Origin: an uncultured Clostridia bacterium
Lineage (GTDB): Bacteria; Bacillota; Clostridia; Christensenellales; UBA1242
Length of the DNA stretch: 31,024 nucleotides
Assembly: GCA_947623795.1 (NCBI GenBank)
Contig: CANQHS010000001.1
Coordinates: 1 to 31,024, forward strand
Direction of reading: 5' to 3'
The translations under genes were made by a program, and so were the position numbers. Each line of letters begins with the position of its first letter. Within the stretch, counting starts at the first letter, position 1. The notes below the pieces were generated by a model. It was not told where the DNA came from, made no database searches, and worked only from the letters and a program-made list of their open reading frames with translations. Positions 3,237-31,024 of the stretch are shown here, one piece after another.

Positions 3237-4661
3237 ATGGAAATTGTAGAAAAAATTTTAAAAATCGACCGCATTTTAAAAGAGCGAAAAGAAAAAAACA
3301 AACTTCAATTCTATAACTCGGGAGAAATAAAGCATAATAAGCAATTGGAGTTTCATAAATGTCCTAAAAAGAATAGATGGGTGTTTGGCGGAAATAGAAC
3401 GGGGAAAACCGAATGTGGGGCGGTTGAAGTTGTGTATTTTGCACGCGGCTGCCACCCATATCGAAAAATCAAAGGAGCAACAACTGGTTGGGTGGTCAGT
3501 TTGTCAACTCAAGTTCAGCGCGATGTTGCACAAAGTAAGATTTTATATTATTTAAACCCGGATTGGATTGTCGATGTCGTTATGCTCCAAGGACGAAAAG
3601 ATAATATAAAAAATGGAATAATTGACTATATATTAGTTAAAAATGTGTTTGGCACCTTTAGCAAGATTGGCTTTAAAAGTTGCGACCAAGGCAGAGAGAA
3701 ATTTCAAGGCACAAGTCTAGACTATGTTTGGTTCGACGAAGAGCCACCATACGACATATATAGCGAGTGCAAAATGCGTATTTTGGATAAGCATGGCGAT
3801 ATATTTGCAACAATGACGCCACTAAAAGGACTCACATTTGTTTATGATGAAATATTCTTAAACAAATTTAATGACGCAAACATTTGGTGCGAATTCATAT
3901 CTTGGGACGATAACCCGTTTATAAGCTCGGAAGCGAAAGAAGAAATGAAAAAGACCATGAGCGATGCCGAGTTAAGGTCAAGACAATATGGCGAGTTTTT
4001 GGATTTTGGCGGGCGAGTTTACACCGAATTTGACGAAAACGTTAATGTCATCGAACCGTTCGATATTCCATATGATTGGCAGGATAAATTATCTATCGAC
4101 CCAGGACTTAAAAATCCACTATCGTGCCACTGGTATGCGGTGGATTATGACGGAAATGTTTATGTGGTGGCGGAGCATTATGATAAGGACAAAGATATTG
4201 AATATCATAGCAATAAAATACACGAAATATGCGAAAAGTTGAATTGGCACAGAAATTCAAATGGCATGGTTGAGGCATTGATCGATAGCGCGGCAAATCA
4301 AAAAACTTTGGCTTCAATAAAAAGTGTTGCGGACTTATTTTATGAGCATAACATTTTGGTCAACACAAATGTAAACAAAGATGTGTTTTCGGGCATACAA
4401 AAGGTGAAATCATATTTAAAAAATAGTTTTGGACAGTCAAAGCTGTTCATTTTTAACACTTGCAAAAATATGATTAACGAAATAAAAACATATCGTTGGG
4501 GAAAGGGTGATAGCCCGGTTAAAGAAAATGACCACAGTATGGACGAATTGAGATACTACATCATGAGCAGGCCAGAAAATAAAAAACCACCACGCGAAAA
4601 AAGCGTTGTTGAATTGGAAAAAGAGCGGCTTATTAAGCAGCTGAAATTAAGGAGGCGATAG
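3237..4661 (+). CDS. terL: Phage terminase large subunit (Terminase_6-like ATPase plus RNase H nuclease)
   Basis: Walker A GGNRTGKT, Walker B/coupling YVWFDEEPP, ATMTP, nuclease SIDPG and NDHSMDELRY all intact. No obvious SD before the ATG. Confidence 0.93.
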   Translation: MEIVEKILKIDRILKERKEKNKLQFYNSGEIKHNKQLEFHKCPKKNRWVFGGNRTGKTECGAVEVVYFARGCHPYRKIKGATTGWVVSLSTQVQRDVAQSKILYYLNPDWIVDVVMLQGRKDNIKNGIIDYILVKNVFGTFSKIGFKSCDQGREKFQGTSLDYVWFDEEPPYDIYSECKMRILDKHGDIFATMTPLKGLTFVYDEIFLNKFNDANIWCEFISWDDNPFISSEAKEEMKKTMSDAELRSRQYGEFLDFGGRVYTEFDENVNVIEPFDIPYDWQDKLSIDPGLKNPLSCHWYAVDYDGNVYVVAEHYDKDKDIEYHSNKIHEICEKLNWHRNSNGMVEALIDSAANQKTLASIKSVADLFYEHNILVNTNVNKDVFSGIQKVKSYLKNSFGQSKLFIFNTCKNMINEIKTYRWGKGDSPVKENDHSMDELRYYIMSRPENKKPPREKSVVELEKERLIKQLKLRRR

Positions 4662-26711: not shown

Positions 26712-27077
26712 TCAATCTATCAATTGATTAGTGTGAGTTTCGAATATGGAATCGATTGCCGCTTCTAAATATTTTTCATAGTAGCGTCCTTCGCCTTTAA
26801 ATTTGCTTGCGAAAAATATACTTGCAAGTTCTTCACCGGTAATTTTGAGTATGTTAGATCCCTCTTTAACATTGACACAATTAAAATGTTTATTAGCAAA
26901 ACGTTCAATATCATAATGTGTTAAAATTAAATTGATTTTAATATTATCGCTTAATAAAATATTATTGAACTCACTAGTACATTCAAAAATAATATCAAAA
27001 GGAATTTTTAACACCCCTCTTTTTGCGAATTCAAGAATAATGCACCCAAGAAACGCGTGTTTATCAAATATTTTCAT
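26712..27077 (-). CDS. Hypothetical protein (121 aa)
   Basis: Only long ORF in this interval; no motif recognised; lies downstream of the tRNA remnants on the same strand. Confidence 0.5.
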   Translation of the reverse strand: MKIFDKHAFLGCIILEFAKRGVLKIPFDIIFECTSEFNNILLSDNIKINLILTHYDIERFANKHFNCVNVKEGSNILKITGEELASIFFASKFKGEGRYYEKYLEAAIDSIFETHTNQLID

Positions 27078-27157: not shown

Positions 27158-27291
27158 TGGTGGACCATCGGGGACTCGAACCCCGGACCCACTGTATTCA
27201 AGTTGAGAGTGAGCGTGGCTGCTCTGCTTGCAGACACGCGAAACGCAGAATACTCCAAGCGAAGCGGAGATTAAGAGCCTCTTAATCAGTT
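27158..27291 (-). pseudogene. tRNA-Lys(CTT) 3' remnant (about positions 26-76) with a 75-bp and an 8-bp insertion
   Basis: Removing 27195-27269 and 27278-27285 restores tggtggaccatcggggactcgaaccccggacccactgattaagagtcagtt; acceptor 3' strand is AUGGUCC. Confidence 0.8.
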
Positions 27292-27320
27292 ACAAGGGGG
27301 TAAGCCCGTTTAATAAAAAA

Positions 27321-27365
27321 TGGTGGGCTGTCGGGGACTCGAACCCCGGACCCACTGATTAAGAG
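27321..27365 (-). pseudogene. tRNA-Lys(CTT) 3' half (att junction)
   Basis: 43/45 identical to 30883-30927. The two differences are in the acceptor stem (C70, A66 versus U70, G66). Identity stops exactly at the 5' edge of the anticodon loop. Confidence 0.9.
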
Positions 27366-27382
27366 AAAAAAATAGCATATTT

Positions 27383-27518
27383 TTATTAGACACTTTTTGT
27401 GTTATCTTATCCCTTAAAATGCCCTATTTTATAGACAAACTTGGGGTTGTATTGTGTTATCTTTTTCTTTTTAAAATTGTCTAATATTGTTTTAGATTTT
27501 GTAGTTTTTTATTAGACA
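27383..27518. repeat. Left cluster of putative integrase arm-type sites
   Basis: TTATTAGACA at 27383 and 27509, inverted TTGTCTAATA at 27477; TTGTGTTATCTT repeated at 27397 and 27452. Confidence 0.6.
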
Positions 27519-27619
27519 ATAAATATGGGATAATATTTAAAAGACCTTTAATAAAACGCTTTTTTTAAACTTGTAATTATGTTAAAATTAAAATATAAAT
27601 TAAAAAGGAGTTTGATAAA

Positions 27620-28462
27620 ATGAAAATTACTTTTTTAGGAACGGCCGCCGCAACGAGTTTTCCACTGACTTTTTGTCAATGTAAAAATTGTAAAGCAGCA
27701 AAAAAGCACAAAGGCAAAAGCATCCGTAAACGTTGTTCACTTTTGATTGATGACAAAATTTTAATTGATTTGTGTCCAGATTTTTTGACGGCTTTAAATA
27801 TGTATGGAAAAGATATTTCAAAGATTAAATATCTTTTACAAACCCACCCGCACTCAGACCACTTTGACGCTGGGCATTTTGTAACAAGAATGACAGACTA
27901 TGCAACTGAGAACGCACCAAATCTTGATATCGTTGCATCAAAAAACTGCCTATTAAGGATGTCGGAGATGATTAAAAGCAATGAAGATATAGATATTTTT
28001 GATAAAAAATGGCAAAAAGATTTAAATATTGCACTAAATGAAATAAAGCACGGACAAGAAATTAATTTTGAAAATTATAAGATTTTGGCAATTGAATCTT
28101 TACATGATTTGAAACAAGGTTCTTTGCTATATTTAATTGAAAAAGGAAAGTCGAGCATTTTGTACGCAACAGATACTGTCGTTTTTTCAGACAAAGCTTT
28201 AGATACTCTTAAAAATCGATGTTTAACTTGTCTTATCTTGGACCATACTTATGGTTTTGTAGAAAACCATGGAGGACATTTAAACGAAAAATTGTTTTTA
28301 CAAGAAATAGATAAGTTAAAAAAAATAAATGCTGTAAATAGCAAAACCTTAATATATGCAACACATATATCCCATGAGGGTTGTTCTTATCACGAACAAA
28401 TGGAAAAAGATGCCAAAGGAAAGTATTTAGTTGCTTATGATGGACTAGAAATCAAAATTTAG
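27620..28462 (+). CDS. MBL-fold metallohydrolase, PhnP-like phosphodiesterase (cargo)
   Basis: ITFLGT, CQCKNC structural Zn site, ILID, QTHPHSDH metal motif, YATDT, THISH; AAGGAG RBS. Confidence 0.8.
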   Translation: MKITFLGTAAATSFPLTFCQCKNCKAAKKHKGKSIRKRCSLLIDDKILIDLCPDFLTALNMYGKDISKIKYLLQTHPHSDHFDAGHFVTRMTDYATENAPNLDIVASKNCLLRMSEMIKSNEDIDIFDKKWQKDLNIALNEIKHGQEINFENYKILAIESLHDLKQGSLLYLIEKGKSSILYATDTVVFSDKALDTLKNRCLTCLILDHTYGFVENHGGHLNEKLFLQEIDKLKKINAVNSKTLIYATHISHEGCSYHEQMEKDAKGKYLVAYDGLEIKI

Positions 28463-28558
28463 ACAAAACTGTTACTATCCATAGCTTATGACAATAAAAT
28501 CCAATATTTTACAAAATTTTTTAAATTTTTTATTAAAAAATACCCTAACGATTTGTGA

Positions 28559-28703
28559 TTTTATGTCCTCATAGATATAGAGGGGATTGTTAGTTTTGGG
28601 CAGCCGAAAGTACGAATTTTGTCTAATTTTAGAAAATTTAAAACTTTTTTCTTAAAAATGACTTAACGATTTCAACTTTTATGTCCTCATAGATATAGAG
28701 GGG
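28559..28703 (+). repeat. 27-bp perfect direct repeat, two copies 118 bp apart
   Basis: TTTTATGTCCTCATAGATATAGAGGGG at 28559-28585 and 28677-28703, each preceded by TAACGATTT 4 nt upstream. Confidence 0.9.
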
Positions 28704-29162
28704 TCTTTTATTTTTGTTAGTTCTAGGTTTATTAAAAACAACAATTCCCTTGTTAAATTAGAAATTAAAAGGAGGTTTACGAGTAAAATATGTTTTTACA
28801 TTAACGAAGAGATGAATATGCGAAAAGAGTGAAAATTAAAGCCGAAAGTATAGAAATTTTTAGTAAGCAGGATAAGGAGTAGACACAAAATGCCTTGTAC
28901 CGCCACGAAAATGCCCTATTTTATAGGGGGTTTTAGGTGCGTCAGGCGGGTATGGGTGGTGGCACAATTTTGAGTCACTCCTCTTTTTCTTGGCAAACGG
29001 GATACCCGTTTCCGTTTTCGCGATTAAAATCGCTATGTTAACTTAACAAAATCTTATTAATTTGTTAGGTTTGATTAGTGCCGAAAGCCTTTCGCTCGAT
29101 GCGTAAAAGGACTATGTCACATTAGTATAGAAAGTGAGAAATTTAAAAAATGGAGATTAAAT

Positions 29163-29381
29163 ATGAATAACACAAAACTAAACACACTAAACATTTTTAC
29201 AAATTACAAAGACATAGTCAAAGTTAAAGATTTACAAAAAATGTTGGGTATTGGCAGGAATTTGGCATATGAGCTTATATCCACAAATAAAATTAAAAGC
29301 ATAAAATCTGGGAACATAATTTTAATACCAAAGCAAAATGTTATTGACTTCCTAAACGGAGGTGAGAACAATGAAAGGTAG
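29163..29381 (+). CDS. xis: Excisionase (winged HTH)
   Basis: 72 aa; VKVKDLQKMLGIGRNLAYELIS..KIKSIKSG..ILIPK; overlaps the integrase start; GGAG RBS. Confidence 0.85.
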   Translation: MNNTKLNTLNIFTNYKDIVKVKDLQKMLGIGRNLAYELISTNKIKSIKSGNIILIPKQNVIDFLNGGENNER

Positions 29382-30645
29382 TTTGCAAGTAAAACACGGA
29401 ACTTATTATGTTGTTGTCAATTACAAAGATGAATATGGCAAGCCAAAGCAAAAATGGATAAGCACAAACCTTAAAGAGCAAGGCAATAAAACAAAAGCAA
29501 AAGAAGAAATGCGAAAGATTTTGAAAAATTTTGATTTTAACAATGTTGCGGTTAAAGAAGTGGATAAAACGGAAGATATTTTGTTTGTGGACTTCCTACA
29601 AAGTTATTTACCAATAAAAAAACAACAAGTTGAACCTGTAACCTATAATGCTTATGTAAAAACTGCCGAAACAATTTGCCATTATTTTAAAAATATGAGA
29701 TTAAAACTTAAAGATTTAAAGCCATATCATATTGAGGGGTTTTATAAATCACAATACGATAAAGGCCTTTCTGGAAATAGTGTTTTAAAATATCACGTTT
29801 TAATTAGAGAGTGTTTGCAATACGGAGTAAGAAATGATTTTGTTCTAACAAATGTTGCCGACAAAGTTACAAGACCAAAAGTTACAAAATTTAAAGCAAG
29901 TTTTTATTCTGTGGAAGAAATTCAAAAATTATTTGAAGCCATTAAAGAACACGAACTACATTTACCCATAATGCTTACCGCAATGTATGGTTTTAGAAGA
30001 AGTGAAGTGCTAGGTTTAAAATGGGAAGCGATTGATTTTGAAAATAAAATAATAAAAGTACAACATAAAGTGTTAGAAACAAAAGTTGATGGCAAAAGGT
30101 GTATTTATAAATCAAACAAATTAAAAAATGAAACTAGCAACCGAATTTTACCACTCCTTCCGCAAGCGGAAGAATTATTGTTAAAACAAAAAGAGCAAAT
30201 TGAAATGAACAAAACTAAACTTGGCAAATGCTATAACGAACAAAATTTAGAATATGTTTGTGTTGATAACATTGGCAGGTTGATTTTACCAAACCGCCTA
30301 ACAAAAGCATTTAATAAAATATTAGCCAAGAACGGATTAAGGCACATTCGCTTTCACGATTTGCGACATTCGTGTGCGAGTATTATGCTTGCAAACAATG
30401 TACCAATGAAACAAATACAAGAATGGTTGGGGCACGCAGATTTTAGCACCACAGCCAATATTTACTCTCATTTGGATTATAAAACAAAAATAAACTCCGC
30501 AAACACAATCTCAAATGTTTTTGATTTTAATATTGACAAGCCAAAGCAAGAAGAAAACGAGTTGAGCACCGCTGAAATTGAAAAAGAGATACAAGAATTG
30601 CAAAAACTTTTAGAAAGGAAAAGACAAAAAGATTATGAAATGTAA
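29371..30645 (+). CDS. int: Tyrosine recombinase/integrase (Tn916/Tn1549-like), 424 aa
   Basis: GGAGGTG RBS fits ATG 29371. N-terminal arm-binding domain (YYVV..G..KQKW.ST), catalytic GFRRSE, HDLRH, LGH, IYSH. Confidence 0.95.
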   Translation: MKGSLQVKHGTYYVVVNYKDEYGKPKQKWISTNLKEQGNKTKAKEEMRKILKNFDFNNVAVKEVDKTEDILFVDFLQSYLPIKKQQVEPVTYNAYVKTAETICHYFKNMRLKLKDLKPYHIEGFYKSQYDKGLSGNSVLKYHVLIRECLQYGVRNDFVLTNVADKVTRPKVTKFKASFYSVEEIQKLFEAIKEHELHLPIMLTAMYGFRRSEVLGLKWEAIDFENKIIKVQHKVLETKVDGKRCIYKSNKLKNETSNRILPLLPQAEELLLKQKEQIEMNKTKLGKCYNEQNLEYVCVDNIGRLILPNRLTKAFNKILAKNGLRHIRFHDLRHSCASIMLANNVPMKQIQEWLGHADFSTTANIYSHLDYKTKINSANTISNVFDFNIDKPKQEENELSTAEIEKEIQELQKLLERKRQKDYEM

Positions 30646-30675
30646 AAAGGTTGGGATTAAATTCTCAACCTTTTT
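30644..30675 (+). terminator. Rho-independent terminator after the integrase
   Basis: AAAAAGGTTGGGA / TCTCAACCTTTTT stem; potentially bidirectional. Confidence 0.8.
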
Positions 30676-30704
30676 CTTATTAAAAAGTGTGGTTTTTTGA
30701 AATT

Positions 30705-30837
30705 TTTATTAGACAATTTATTAGACAAAGCCAAATTTTGCTAAATTTTTGAGATTTTGAAAGACCTATTTTAAGTGTTCAAAAAAGCACATTTTATAAA
30801 ATTTATTAGACAATTTTTAAAATTTTATTAGACAAAA
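30705..30837. repeat. Right cluster of putative integrase arm-type sites
   Basis: Four copies of TTATTAGACA, two of them in tandem (TTATTAGACAATTTATTAGACA); same motif as the left end. Confidence 0.6.
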
Positions 30838-30849
30838 TTTGAAAGATAA

Positions 30850-30879
30850 AAAACAAAAACCCCCATAAAATAGGGGTTT
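30850..30879 (-). terminator. Terminator of the intact tRNA-Lys
   Basis: Minus strand AAACCCCTA-TTTTA-TGGGGGTTT followed by a T-rich run directly after CCA. Confidence 0.7.
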
Positions 30880-30882
30880 ATT

Positions 30883-30958
30883 TGGTGGACTGCCGGGGAC
30901 TCGAACCCCGGACCCACTGATTAAGAGTCAGTTGCTCTACCAACTGAGCTAGCAGTCC
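30883..30958 (-). tRNA. tRNA-Lys(CTT), complete
   Basis: GGACTGCTAGCTCAGTTGGTAGAGCAACTGACTCTTAATCAGTGGGTCCGGGGTTCGAGTCCCCGGCAGTCCACCA; all stems paired; anticodon CTT; encoded CCA. Confidence 0.96.
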
Positions 30959-30990
30959 AAATTTGTTATTAAGTTGTGTTTTTGCCCTTC

Positions 30991-31024
30991 GATTAAGAGT
31001 CAGTTGCTCTACCAACTGAGCTAA
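30991..31024 (-). pseudogene. tRNA-Lys(CTT) 5' half truncated just after the anticodon loop (5' end outside window)
   Basis: 33 nt identical to 30919-30951. Position 7 is U (A at 31024) rather than C. Sequence after CTCTTAATC is unrelated to tRNA. Confidence 0.85.

Follow-up and report, generated by a model that had tools for sequence, protein, structure and literature searches.

A 3.6-kb integrative element splits a tRNA-Lys(CTT) gene in a gut Clostridia genome and carries a complete tRNA-Lys of its own

Results

In the metagenome-assembled genome (MAG, G000) of a gut Clostridia bacterium, a 3.6-kb mobile element splits the host's only tRNA-Lys(CTT) gene at the anticodon loop. The window, the whole stretch of 31,024 nucleotides that was analysed, is an entire contig (C1), and its right end overlaps the end of another contig, C85, over an exact 77 nt. 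Very probably, the single tRNA-Lys(CTT) gene, divergent from murG, was hit in its anticodon loop by an integrative element of 3,634 bp (27366-30990 and one copy of the core). The element comprises genes for an MBL-fold hydrolase, an excisionase and a tyrosine integrase, arm-type repeats, a complete tRNA-Lys(CTT) and a 32-bp spacer; structural, lysis and repressor genes are absent, thus it is not a phage.

The left arm of the attachment site attP (27366-27619) contains the repeat TTATTAGACA at 27383-27392 and 27509-27518 and an inverted copy with 9 of 10 matching positions at 27478-27487. It is followed on the plus strand by a cargo gene for an MBL-fold metallo-hydrolase of 280 aa (PhnP/PRK02113-like; 27620-28462), a non-coding stretch of 700 bp (28463-29162) with two 80-nt direct repeats (28519-28598 and 28637-28716), and xis (29163-29381), which encodes an excisionase-like HTH_17 protein of 72 aa (Xis/recombination directionality factor). 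The integrase gene int (29371-30645, plus strand) was assigned the ATG start codon that agrees with the homologues, hence a product of 424 aa with the Pfam domains Phage_integrase and SAM-like; the catalytic residues R210, K252, H329, R332, H355 and Y365 are invariant across the alignment. Four exact TTATTAGACA repeats, starting at 30706, 30718, 30803 and 30825, form the right arm of attP (30706-30834). All six exact copies present in the 31 kb lie inside these two arms. Domains, catalytic residues and repeats characterize Int as a lambda-type tyrosine integrase with arm-type sites on either side of the attP core.

Beyond the right arm, all features lie on the minus strand. ARAGORN and Rfam (tRNA, 71.6 bits) agreed on a complete tRNA-Lys(CTT) at 30883-30958, as the first-pass annotation had placed it next to the attachment core. 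This tRNA, named C, has the acceptor stem GGACTGC/GCAGTCC and its own intrinsic terminator (30857-30879). It is the sole tRNA-Lys found in the 76.6%-complete MAG; a tRNA-Lys(UUU) was not detected in this assembly, but may exist. The spacer (30959-30990, GAAGGGC…AAATTT) separates the tRNA from the outer 9-bp core CTCTTAATC (30991-30999), the crossover site at the promoter-proximal junction. A second copy of CTCTTAATC at the distal junction (27357-27365) links the element arm to a 3' half of a tRNA gene. The core is flanked by TTTTTTT and GAAGG in attP and by CAACTGA and AGTGG in attB. Since element and target have these 9 bp alone in common, the host tRNA is not rebuilt by the insertion.

The interrupted gene, named B, is represented by two orphan halves on the minus strand. 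Its 5' half occupies the contig end behind the core (31000-31024) and runs 6 nt further into C85. There the continuation after 31024 reads CAGCCC on the plus strand, thus the half starts with GGGCTGT and pairs at all 7 positions with ACAGCCC of the orphan 3' half (27321-27356, …CCCCGACAGCCCACCA). A 30-nt spacer follows outward on C85, then a decayed 5' fragment of an older tRNA gene, A (GGACCAT…CTTAATC), a host promoter (TTGACT-17-TATAAT) and the divergent murG. GGACCAT of this fragment pairs 7/7 with ATGGTCC at 27158. The first-pass annotation had offered the pairings with the 27321 and the 27158 copies as alternatives; both are realized, one nested in the other. Its observation that the displaced 3' half mispairs with the tRNA of the element was also confirmed, as ACAGCCC and GGACTGC mismatch at 3:70 and 7:66. 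Three different acceptor stems that each pair with their own nested partner only, in a pattern that recurs in independent genomes, exclude chance.

Relatives within the genus possess an intact tRNA-Lys(CTT) at the same site, e.g., GGACCAT/ATGGTCC in G015 and GGACCGC/GCGGTCC in G010, and thus provided the empty site that the first-pass annotation had suggested to look for; the genomes of G010, G015 and G005 each contain a single intact tRNA-Lys(CTT). In the sister species G059, with a MurG 87% identical, an identical spacer follows the 5' orphan GGACCGC, and the same left arm and core precede the 3' orphan GCGGTCC. In both genomes, each orphan half fits its counterpart but not the tRNA of the element. 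G059 thus carries an independent insertion of the same element into another tRNA-Lys allele.

A different origin of the fragments would be an ordinary tandem tRNA-Lys array decayed to pseudogene fragments, with the int-xis module merely nearby. Such arrays exist in other gut organisms, and short-linker joints between tRNA-Lys copies occur in metagenome contigs. However, on either side of the int-xis module with its bordering arm repeats the fragments end precisely at one and the same 9-bp core, halves 3.6 kb apart are complementary, the relatives have a single intact gene at the site and a junction molecule was found (see below). We consider this explanation extremely unlikely.

The junction molecule is a contig of run X9, a rabbit-gut metagenome of a different study, which joins 30990 to 27357. 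This corresponds to 3634 bp, with 9 shared letters and 58 nt on the short side, and is exactly the product predicted for recombination at the outer core. It consists of one Logan contig of 221 nt, from a variant with approximately 94% similarity, in which a circle and a tandem array are indistinguishable; the junction is the attP of a circle or of a tandem copy made at the outer core. A contig of run X2 crosses the integrated distal junction. The exact attP junction pattern TTTTTTCTCTTAATCGAAGG had 0 matches in viral_contigs, and its two matches in metagenome_contigs were unrelated chance hits.

The first-pass annotation had also proposed two alternative cores. Both are present in the sequence: the inner core GATTAAGAG (30919-30927) lies within tRNA C, and 30991-31023 is identical to 30919-30951 over 33 nt, while A in place of G at 31024 results in U7 in the orphan 5' half. 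Use of the inner core by the element was not seen; the corresponding 3562-bp junction did not occur among the metagenome contigs compared, although contigs cannot show absence. A classical element could have used the inner core and supplied a 3' half only, the upstream 5' half and spacer being an unrelated local duplication of 72 bp. In addition to the inner core and the 33-nt repeat, this interpretation finds support in the relative L035, whose junction is devoid of a spacer and whose hybrid tRNA has a mismatch, A3·C70, and in classical members of the same integrase family (L076, L099) as well as the island of G010 at the same tRNA. Yet the displaced ACAGCCC, mispaired with the tRNA of the element, is a perfect partner of the upstream orphan GGGCTGT, whereas a simple duplication would yield identical acceptor strands. 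G059 shows the same pattern with another allele and an identical spacer, and the junction observed has 3634 bp, not 3562 bp. The inner-core interpretation is therefore largely refuted and very unlikely. The hybrid tRNA of L035 is what would be expected from inner-core use or from loss of the DNA between the repeated 5' halves.

Among homologues of the integrase the pattern is widespread. Of the 61 loci that combine a homologous integrase gene with a convergent tRNA, 31–41 had an orphan 5' half (41 above the 99th percentile of the null, 31 with a score of at least 40). Target genes were tRNAs for Ser, Lys, Leu, Arg and Gln, and the orphan 5' halves end at tRNA positions 37-45. Within the 10-kb flank, 3' orphans were located in few loci only (L105, L030), and orphan pairing was assessable in four cases. 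At the tRNA-Ser loci L105 and G026/L030 both orphans are present, and GGAGAGG and CCTCTCC pair with each other, not with the tRNA of the element. Of the small virome records with 45%-identical integrases, MT839038, MT840019, MT836946 and MT836101 were considered as excised circles and rejected, as they have no terminal overlaps; MT839038 and MT836101 have a clear orphan 5' half and represent integrated copies flanked by host DNA.

The MAG was assembled from short reads and is 76.6% complete; the right junction of the element is split over C1 and C85, joined by the 77-nt overlap only. The terminal 5' half and the link of the two contigs could thus be a chimera of tRNA-Lys loci from different strains of the metagenome: the MAG consists of 100 contigs, the break falls exactly into the repeat, and G059 has a contig break at this very 77-mer, which points to a branching assembly graph. 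Against such an artefact, the orphans on different contigs have perfectly complementary acceptor strands at two nested levels, the same architecture occurs in dozens of independent assemblies, including scaffolds of isolates and long contigs, and contigs of three other studies cover the junctions. An assembly artefact is hence highly unlikely.

Downstream of the distal junction, relics of older insertions were identified. The oldest and most distal is the 3' half of tRNA-Lys A (ATGGTCC plus ACCA; 27158-27194, minus strand), the partner of GGACCAT on C85, followed by the native terminator (27137-27122). The junction of the old core with this 3' half is broken by a GC-rich insert of 75 bp (27195-27269, minus strand), which is conserved in G015 and G059. 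Its removal restores CTCTTAAT joined directly to CAGTGGG; the insert belongs to the older relic and not to the 3.6-kb element. The relic core (27270-27277, minus strand) forms a palindrome with CTGATTAAGAGG (27278-27289, minus strand), an inverted copy of core and stem. A 31-nt trailer behind tRNA B (27290-27320, minus strand) is the sole remnant downstream of the tRNA of an intermediate element; homology to G015 begins only at CTGATTAAGAG. Rfam did not yield a match in 27158-27320 beyond a tRNA-like T arm, and GC-rich D-loop inserts of L036-L038 had no detectable similarity to the 75-bp insert. Of the intermediate element, the donor of B, the spacer, the tRNA and the 31 nt remain. Its body is missing, thus a nested history requires an unexplained deletion. 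The 5' and 3' halves of B together are identical to the tRNA of the L038 element (sequences compared by eye), but spacer and trailer differ.

Discussion

The arrangement suggests that the lambda-type integrase, with the arm-type sites TTATTAGACA and the Xis-like protein, would perform the strand exchange within the 9-bp core CTCTTAATC, i.e., at tRNA positions 32-40. Neither junction rebuilds the tRNA, and the two separate halves are what remains of the host gene. The tRNA function is presumably kept because a whole tRNA-Lys(CTT), terminator included, forms part of attP; it lies 32 bp from the core and reads in the direction of the broken gene. In the integrated state this tRNA lies just downstream of the host tRNA promoter, which from this position and orientation can drive it. 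The only strong promoter is that of the host, upstream of the 5' fragments; a promoter-like site was not found in the 32-bp spacer. Most likely, transcription proceeds from the host promoter through the orphan 5' half, followed by trimming by RNase P. The cell may then depend on the tRNA of the element. The presence of the same element in two alleles with different acceptor stems fits the host-range benefit proposed initially. As the tRNA of a newcomer is a fresh attB, insertions may nest, here from the native A to B to C.

With slightly less than even confidence we propose a broader scenario: a large clade of Clostridia integrases with attP-embedded tRNAs might capture host tRNA promoters, and nested insertion might serially replace single-copy tRNA genes with alleles gained by horizontal transfer. 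The tRNA-Lys at work in this genome would be a third-generation import, and decay of the orphans by deletions and GC-rich mini-inserts would make the replacement irreversible. If true, tRNA gene turnover and element fixation in small genomes would have a general route in this process.

The logic of bringing an own tRNA is not new. It was shown by experiment as tRNA-dependent lysogeny for actinobacteriophages, i.e., Fionnbharth/K4, Cluster L, Cain, Gaia, BrutonGaster and Mollymur (Guerrero-Bustamante & Hatfull, mBio 2024; PMC10865867). These phages share with our element a lambda-like tyrosine integrase with arm sites, an attB in a tRNA gene, there too often tRNA-Lys, a short common core (8-17 bp there, 9 bp here) that does not rebuild the tRNA, and a tRNA gene inside the element, here at 30958-30883. 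They are, however, temperate phages of 40-80 kb, whereas the element of the gut Clostridia has 3.6 kb and no phage genes. Fionnbharth encodes its tRNA elsewhere in the genome under an own, tested promoter; here the tRNA is part of attP. The tRNA dependence was demonstrated experimentally for the phages and is conjectural in our case. Nested serial replacement and an integrase clade acting on Ser, Lys, Leu, Arg and Gln tRNAs are not described in PMC10865867. Our case differs in several respects: the mini-element is not a phage, its attP houses the tRNA, which would come under the host promoter, and replacement is serial and nested. It also belongs to another bacterial group and is more compact. 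The strategy to break a tRNA gene and bring an own one is not confined to actinobacteriophages; it occurs commonly in gut Clostridia, where very small non-phage elements make use of it. A tRNA in attP would remove the need to match the acceptor and T arms of the host, so the same element can enter different alleles, as seen in two species, and the imported tRNA would come under the host promoter. The 3.6-kb int-xis-attP-tRNA module is a candidate integration vector for Clostridia that are uncultured or difficult to handle.

Prophage Lj965 of Lactobacillus johnsonii, as cited in PMC10865867 and PMC3714127, is another Firmicute element that reportedly does not restore its target tRNA and carries cognate tRNA genes; it is a full prophage, likened here by these descriptions only.

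Classical anticodon-loop integrators, e.g., mycobacteriophage Boilgate with a 43-bp core (PMC10865867) and the islands mapped by Islander (PMC4383910), have an integrase of the same superfamily, the crossover in the anticodon loop and int beside the tRNA. Their attP combines the core with a 3' half, so the tRNA is rebuilt and a displaced 3' fragment is left, whereas our element shares 9 bp with its target, imports a whole tRNA and leaves 5' and 3' orphans. Island-mapping tools that seek a rebuilt tRNA and a displaced 3' fragment could mis-map or miss such elements, and annotators would mistake the horizontally imported tRNAs for native ones. The present insertion is distinguished from the tRNA-restoring Islander type by its orphan 5' half, by orphans that pair with each other and not with the tRNA of the element, and by a junction formed at the outer core.

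Organisation of the tRNA-Lys(CTT) locus

Contig C1, which the window covers entirely, belongs to a MAG of 854 kb with 36 % GC and a completeness of 76.6 %. On the reverse strand, an orphan 5' half of tRNA-Lys ending at CTCTTAATC (31024..30991) was followed by a 32-bp spacer (30990..30959), a complete tRNA-Lys(CTT) (30958..30883; ARAGORN; Rfam 71.6 bits) and its intrinsic terminator (30879..30857). The 5' half thus occurred twice, with identity over 33 nt and a difference at the very next base. Beyond the terminator were located a tyrosine integrase gene convergent to the tRNA (29371-30645), an HTH_17 excisionase-like gene (29163-29381), an MBL-fold hydrolase gene (27620-28462) and, again on the reverse strand, a distal copy of the core CTCTTAATC (27365..27357) with the 3' half of tRNA-Lys (27356..27321). 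A check against the sequence confirmed all coordinates of the first-pass annotation. The 700 bp of non-coding sequence within the element (28463-29162) contained two direct repeats of 80 nt (28519-28598 and 28637-28716) that were 80 % alike. Metagenome contigs accumulated and broke at about 28513-28533, as if a module boundary common to many elements were located there.

The right end of C1 and the end of contig C85 had an overlap of exactly 77 nt, and no other contig of the MAG was found to share these ends. Two continuations had been considered in the first-pass annotation, CAGCCC for a pairing of the orphan with the 3' half at 27321 and TGGTCC for a pairing with a further copy at 27158. C85 continued with CAGCCC, thus the orphan 5' half starts with GGGCTGT and pairs in 7 of 7 positions with the ACAGCCC of the displaced 3' half, whereas the complete tRNA (GGACTGC/GCAGTCC) differs from this pair at 3:70 and 7:66. 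The better fit of the orphan had been foreseen. The alternative partner at 27158 was real as well: a second 5' fragment, 30 nt further upstream (GGACCATTAGCTTAGTTGATAA-CTTAATC), decayed and lacking about 12 nt, paired 7/7 with the ATGGTCC of that copy. Behind each of the two orphan 5' pieces came GAAGG and a spacer of about 30 nt. The region had a single strong promoter, TTGACT-17-TATAAT with extended -10, which lay upstream of both pieces; the divergent murG was located beyond it. With both 5' fragments paired to 3' copies and the promoter and murG beyond them, the locus is nested. Naming the native tRNA A, the intermediate B and the element-borne C, the order is promoter, 5'A, spacer, 5'B, spacer, tRNA-C, element, core, 3'B, relic, 3'A and native terminator. 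An identical 77-mer (100 %) ended contigs in two MAGs, the window at 30948-31024 and contig C87 of the relative G059 at 1-77, which suggests either a branch in the assembly graph, the element being common and the tRNA alleles host-specific, or a population in which only some members carry the insertion.

In the relic behind 3'B (27158-27289), a core palindrome was combined with a GC-rich 75-bp insert, whose boundaries were confirmed, and with the distal 3' half; CTGATTAAGAGs, in front of the distal 3' half, repeats the core plus stem in inverted orientation. It was conserved in three species, in the window, in G015 (locus L116, ~1090-1225) and in G059 (locus L144, 110-253), with a GC-rich insert of 75-76 bp interrupting the core of the distal 3' half; in G015 and G059 the acceptor strand of the distal copy was the same as in the working tRNA. 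Since the relic is common to the three genomes, it predates these insertion events. The intermediate element that brought tRNA-B has lost its body. An open reading frame of 121 aa (26712-27077, reverse strand) adjoined the native tRNA terminator and had no match in Pfam, NCBIfam or PHROG; a similar-looking frame was seen by eye at the equivalent position in G015.

Evidence for recombination at the outer core

The element offers two right-hand cores, an outer one (30991-30999) and an inner one within tRNA-C (30919-30927). Acceptor pairing, the empty site, the insertion in G059 and a junction contig point to the outer core. In the acceptor stem, the orphan halves match one another and not tRNA-C. 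The empty site, a search for which the first-pass annotation had proposed, was found in relatives: within the genus, a single intact tRNA-Lys(CTT) precedes murG. Its acceptor stem was GGACCAT/ATGGTCC, the A allele, in G015 and GGACCGC/GCGGTCC in G010, and further genomes have still other stems. In a pattern search, the genomes of G010 (99 % complete), G005 and G015 each yielded one intact anticodon arm. In the closest relative, G059 (MurG 87 % identical), one contig started with the same spacer as in the window, preceded by a 5' orphan GGACCGC immediately behind the promoter, and a second contig began with the left arm of the element and the core, after which came a 3' orphan GCGGTCC. G059 and the window thus share the element, the spacer and the first bases of tRNA-C in two alleles with unlike acceptor stems, and in both insertions the orphans agree with each other. 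The insertion in G059 is independent of that in the window.

Logan contigs were taken from four rabbit or gut metagenomes and mapped to the window. In run X9, which belongs to a third study, one contig of 221 nt joined 30990 to 27357, 3634 back, with 9 letters fitting both sides and 58 nt on the short side. This is exactly the size predicted for the outer-core product in the first-pass annotation, and the contig represents attP, either in a circle or in a tandem copy, formed at the outer core. For a false join, the short-word contigs of Logan would have to share a sequence far longer than the 9-nt core. Run X2 contributed a contig across the integrated distal junction.

Anatomy of attP and probable expression of the imported tRNA

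The sequence common to attP and attB was only CTCTTAATC, tRNA positions 32-40, flanked by TTTTTTT/GAAGG in attP and by CAACTGA/AGTGG in attB. Exact copies of TTATTAGACA occurred six times in the 31 kb, all within the element ends: two left of the core, accompanied by an inverted 9/10 copy, and four on the right, in the stretch from the tRNA terminator to the end of int. These repeats are likely arm-type sites. With the core on one side of it and the arm sites on the other, the tRNA gene is embedded within attP. Inspection of the 32-bp spacer revealed no promoter-like site. After integration, some 130 nt separate the host tRNA promoter from the imported tRNA downstream of it; the most economical reading is that this promoter would drive its transcription and RNase P would then process the transcript.

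Integrase family and known systems

An alignment of five integrase homologues led to 80 loci from one-genome-per-species contigs, mostly Clostridia MAGs (Christensenella-labelled, Oscillospiraceae, Ruminococcaceae and others). A convergent tRNA was present directly behind int in 61 of them. The first 45 nt of each tRNA were locally aligned to the 450 nt upstream, with the 99th percentile of a within-locus null as cut-off: the alignment exceeded it in 41 of the 61 loci, and 31 scored at least 40. The orphans stopped at positions 37-45, the anticodon loop. Lys loci had spacers of about 32 nt and Ser(CGA) loci had spacers of about 150 nt; further loci used Leu, Arg or Gln tRNAs. The acceptor strands of orphan and element tRNA were often unlike. 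Where both orphans were within reach, in L105 and in L030 of genome G026, they paired mutually (GGAGAGG/CCTCTCC) and not with the element tRNA, and the shared core had 9-12 nt. The same clade includes the classical members L076 and L099, with a 3' duplication only.

In 2024, 'tRNA-dependent lysogeny' was described for actinobacteriophages, whose tyrosine integrases recombine at 8-17-bp cores in tRNA genes without rebuilding the tRNA; the phage brings a cognate tRNA, and viable integrants were shown to require it; an occurrence outside Actinobacteria was anticipated, citing prophage Lj965 (PMC10865867). Among the later papers examined, this work is mostly cited in connection with phages, and one paper mentions a rhizobial prophage case. 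At the level of sequence, the present element shows every feature of tRNA-dependent lysogeny. The strategy itself is therefore already known. The present case differs in its small size of 3.6 kb without phage genes, in a tRNA that is part of attP and runs in the same direction as the broken gene, whereas the Fionnbharth tRNA is located elsewhere with its own tested promoter, in the nested serial replacements, and in an integrase from a large Clostridia clade that uses at least five isotypes.

Near relatives of the element

The integrases of loci L036-L038 were 67-71 % identical to that of the present element, and stacked 5' orphans were found there too. The tRNA carried by L038 is identical to the reconstructed tRNA-B, and the split tRNA of L036 has the acceptor stem of tRNA-C. 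In L035 (Christensenella sp. UBA5893 contig, 3672-3747), an L038-type element was joined without spacer or orphan to a tRNA-Lys with GGACTGT/ACAGCCC and an A3·C70 mismatch, apparently a hybrid whose 5' half came from the host and whose 3' half came from the element. Such a mismatched hybrid is the expected product of inner-core use or of a deletion between repeated 5' halves.

GC-rich inserts of 77-99 nt were present in orphan 5' halves of tRNA-Lys in L036 (~11650-11840), L037 (~7930-8120) and L038 (~2345-2470), upstream of the element tRNAs and at the same place in the D-loop, right after GTTGG. The three start alike but do not resemble the 75-bp insert found in the window, and they may represent a small insertion element or serve to disable the orphans. 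In this genus, the tRNA-Lys(CTT) site is a hot spot serving both modes of integration. A classical island of about 12.6 kb occupied the same tRNA-Lys(CTT) in G010 (contig C7, 44920-57626), with an intact tRNA and a displaced 3' fragment ACGACTCTTAATCAGTGGGTC.
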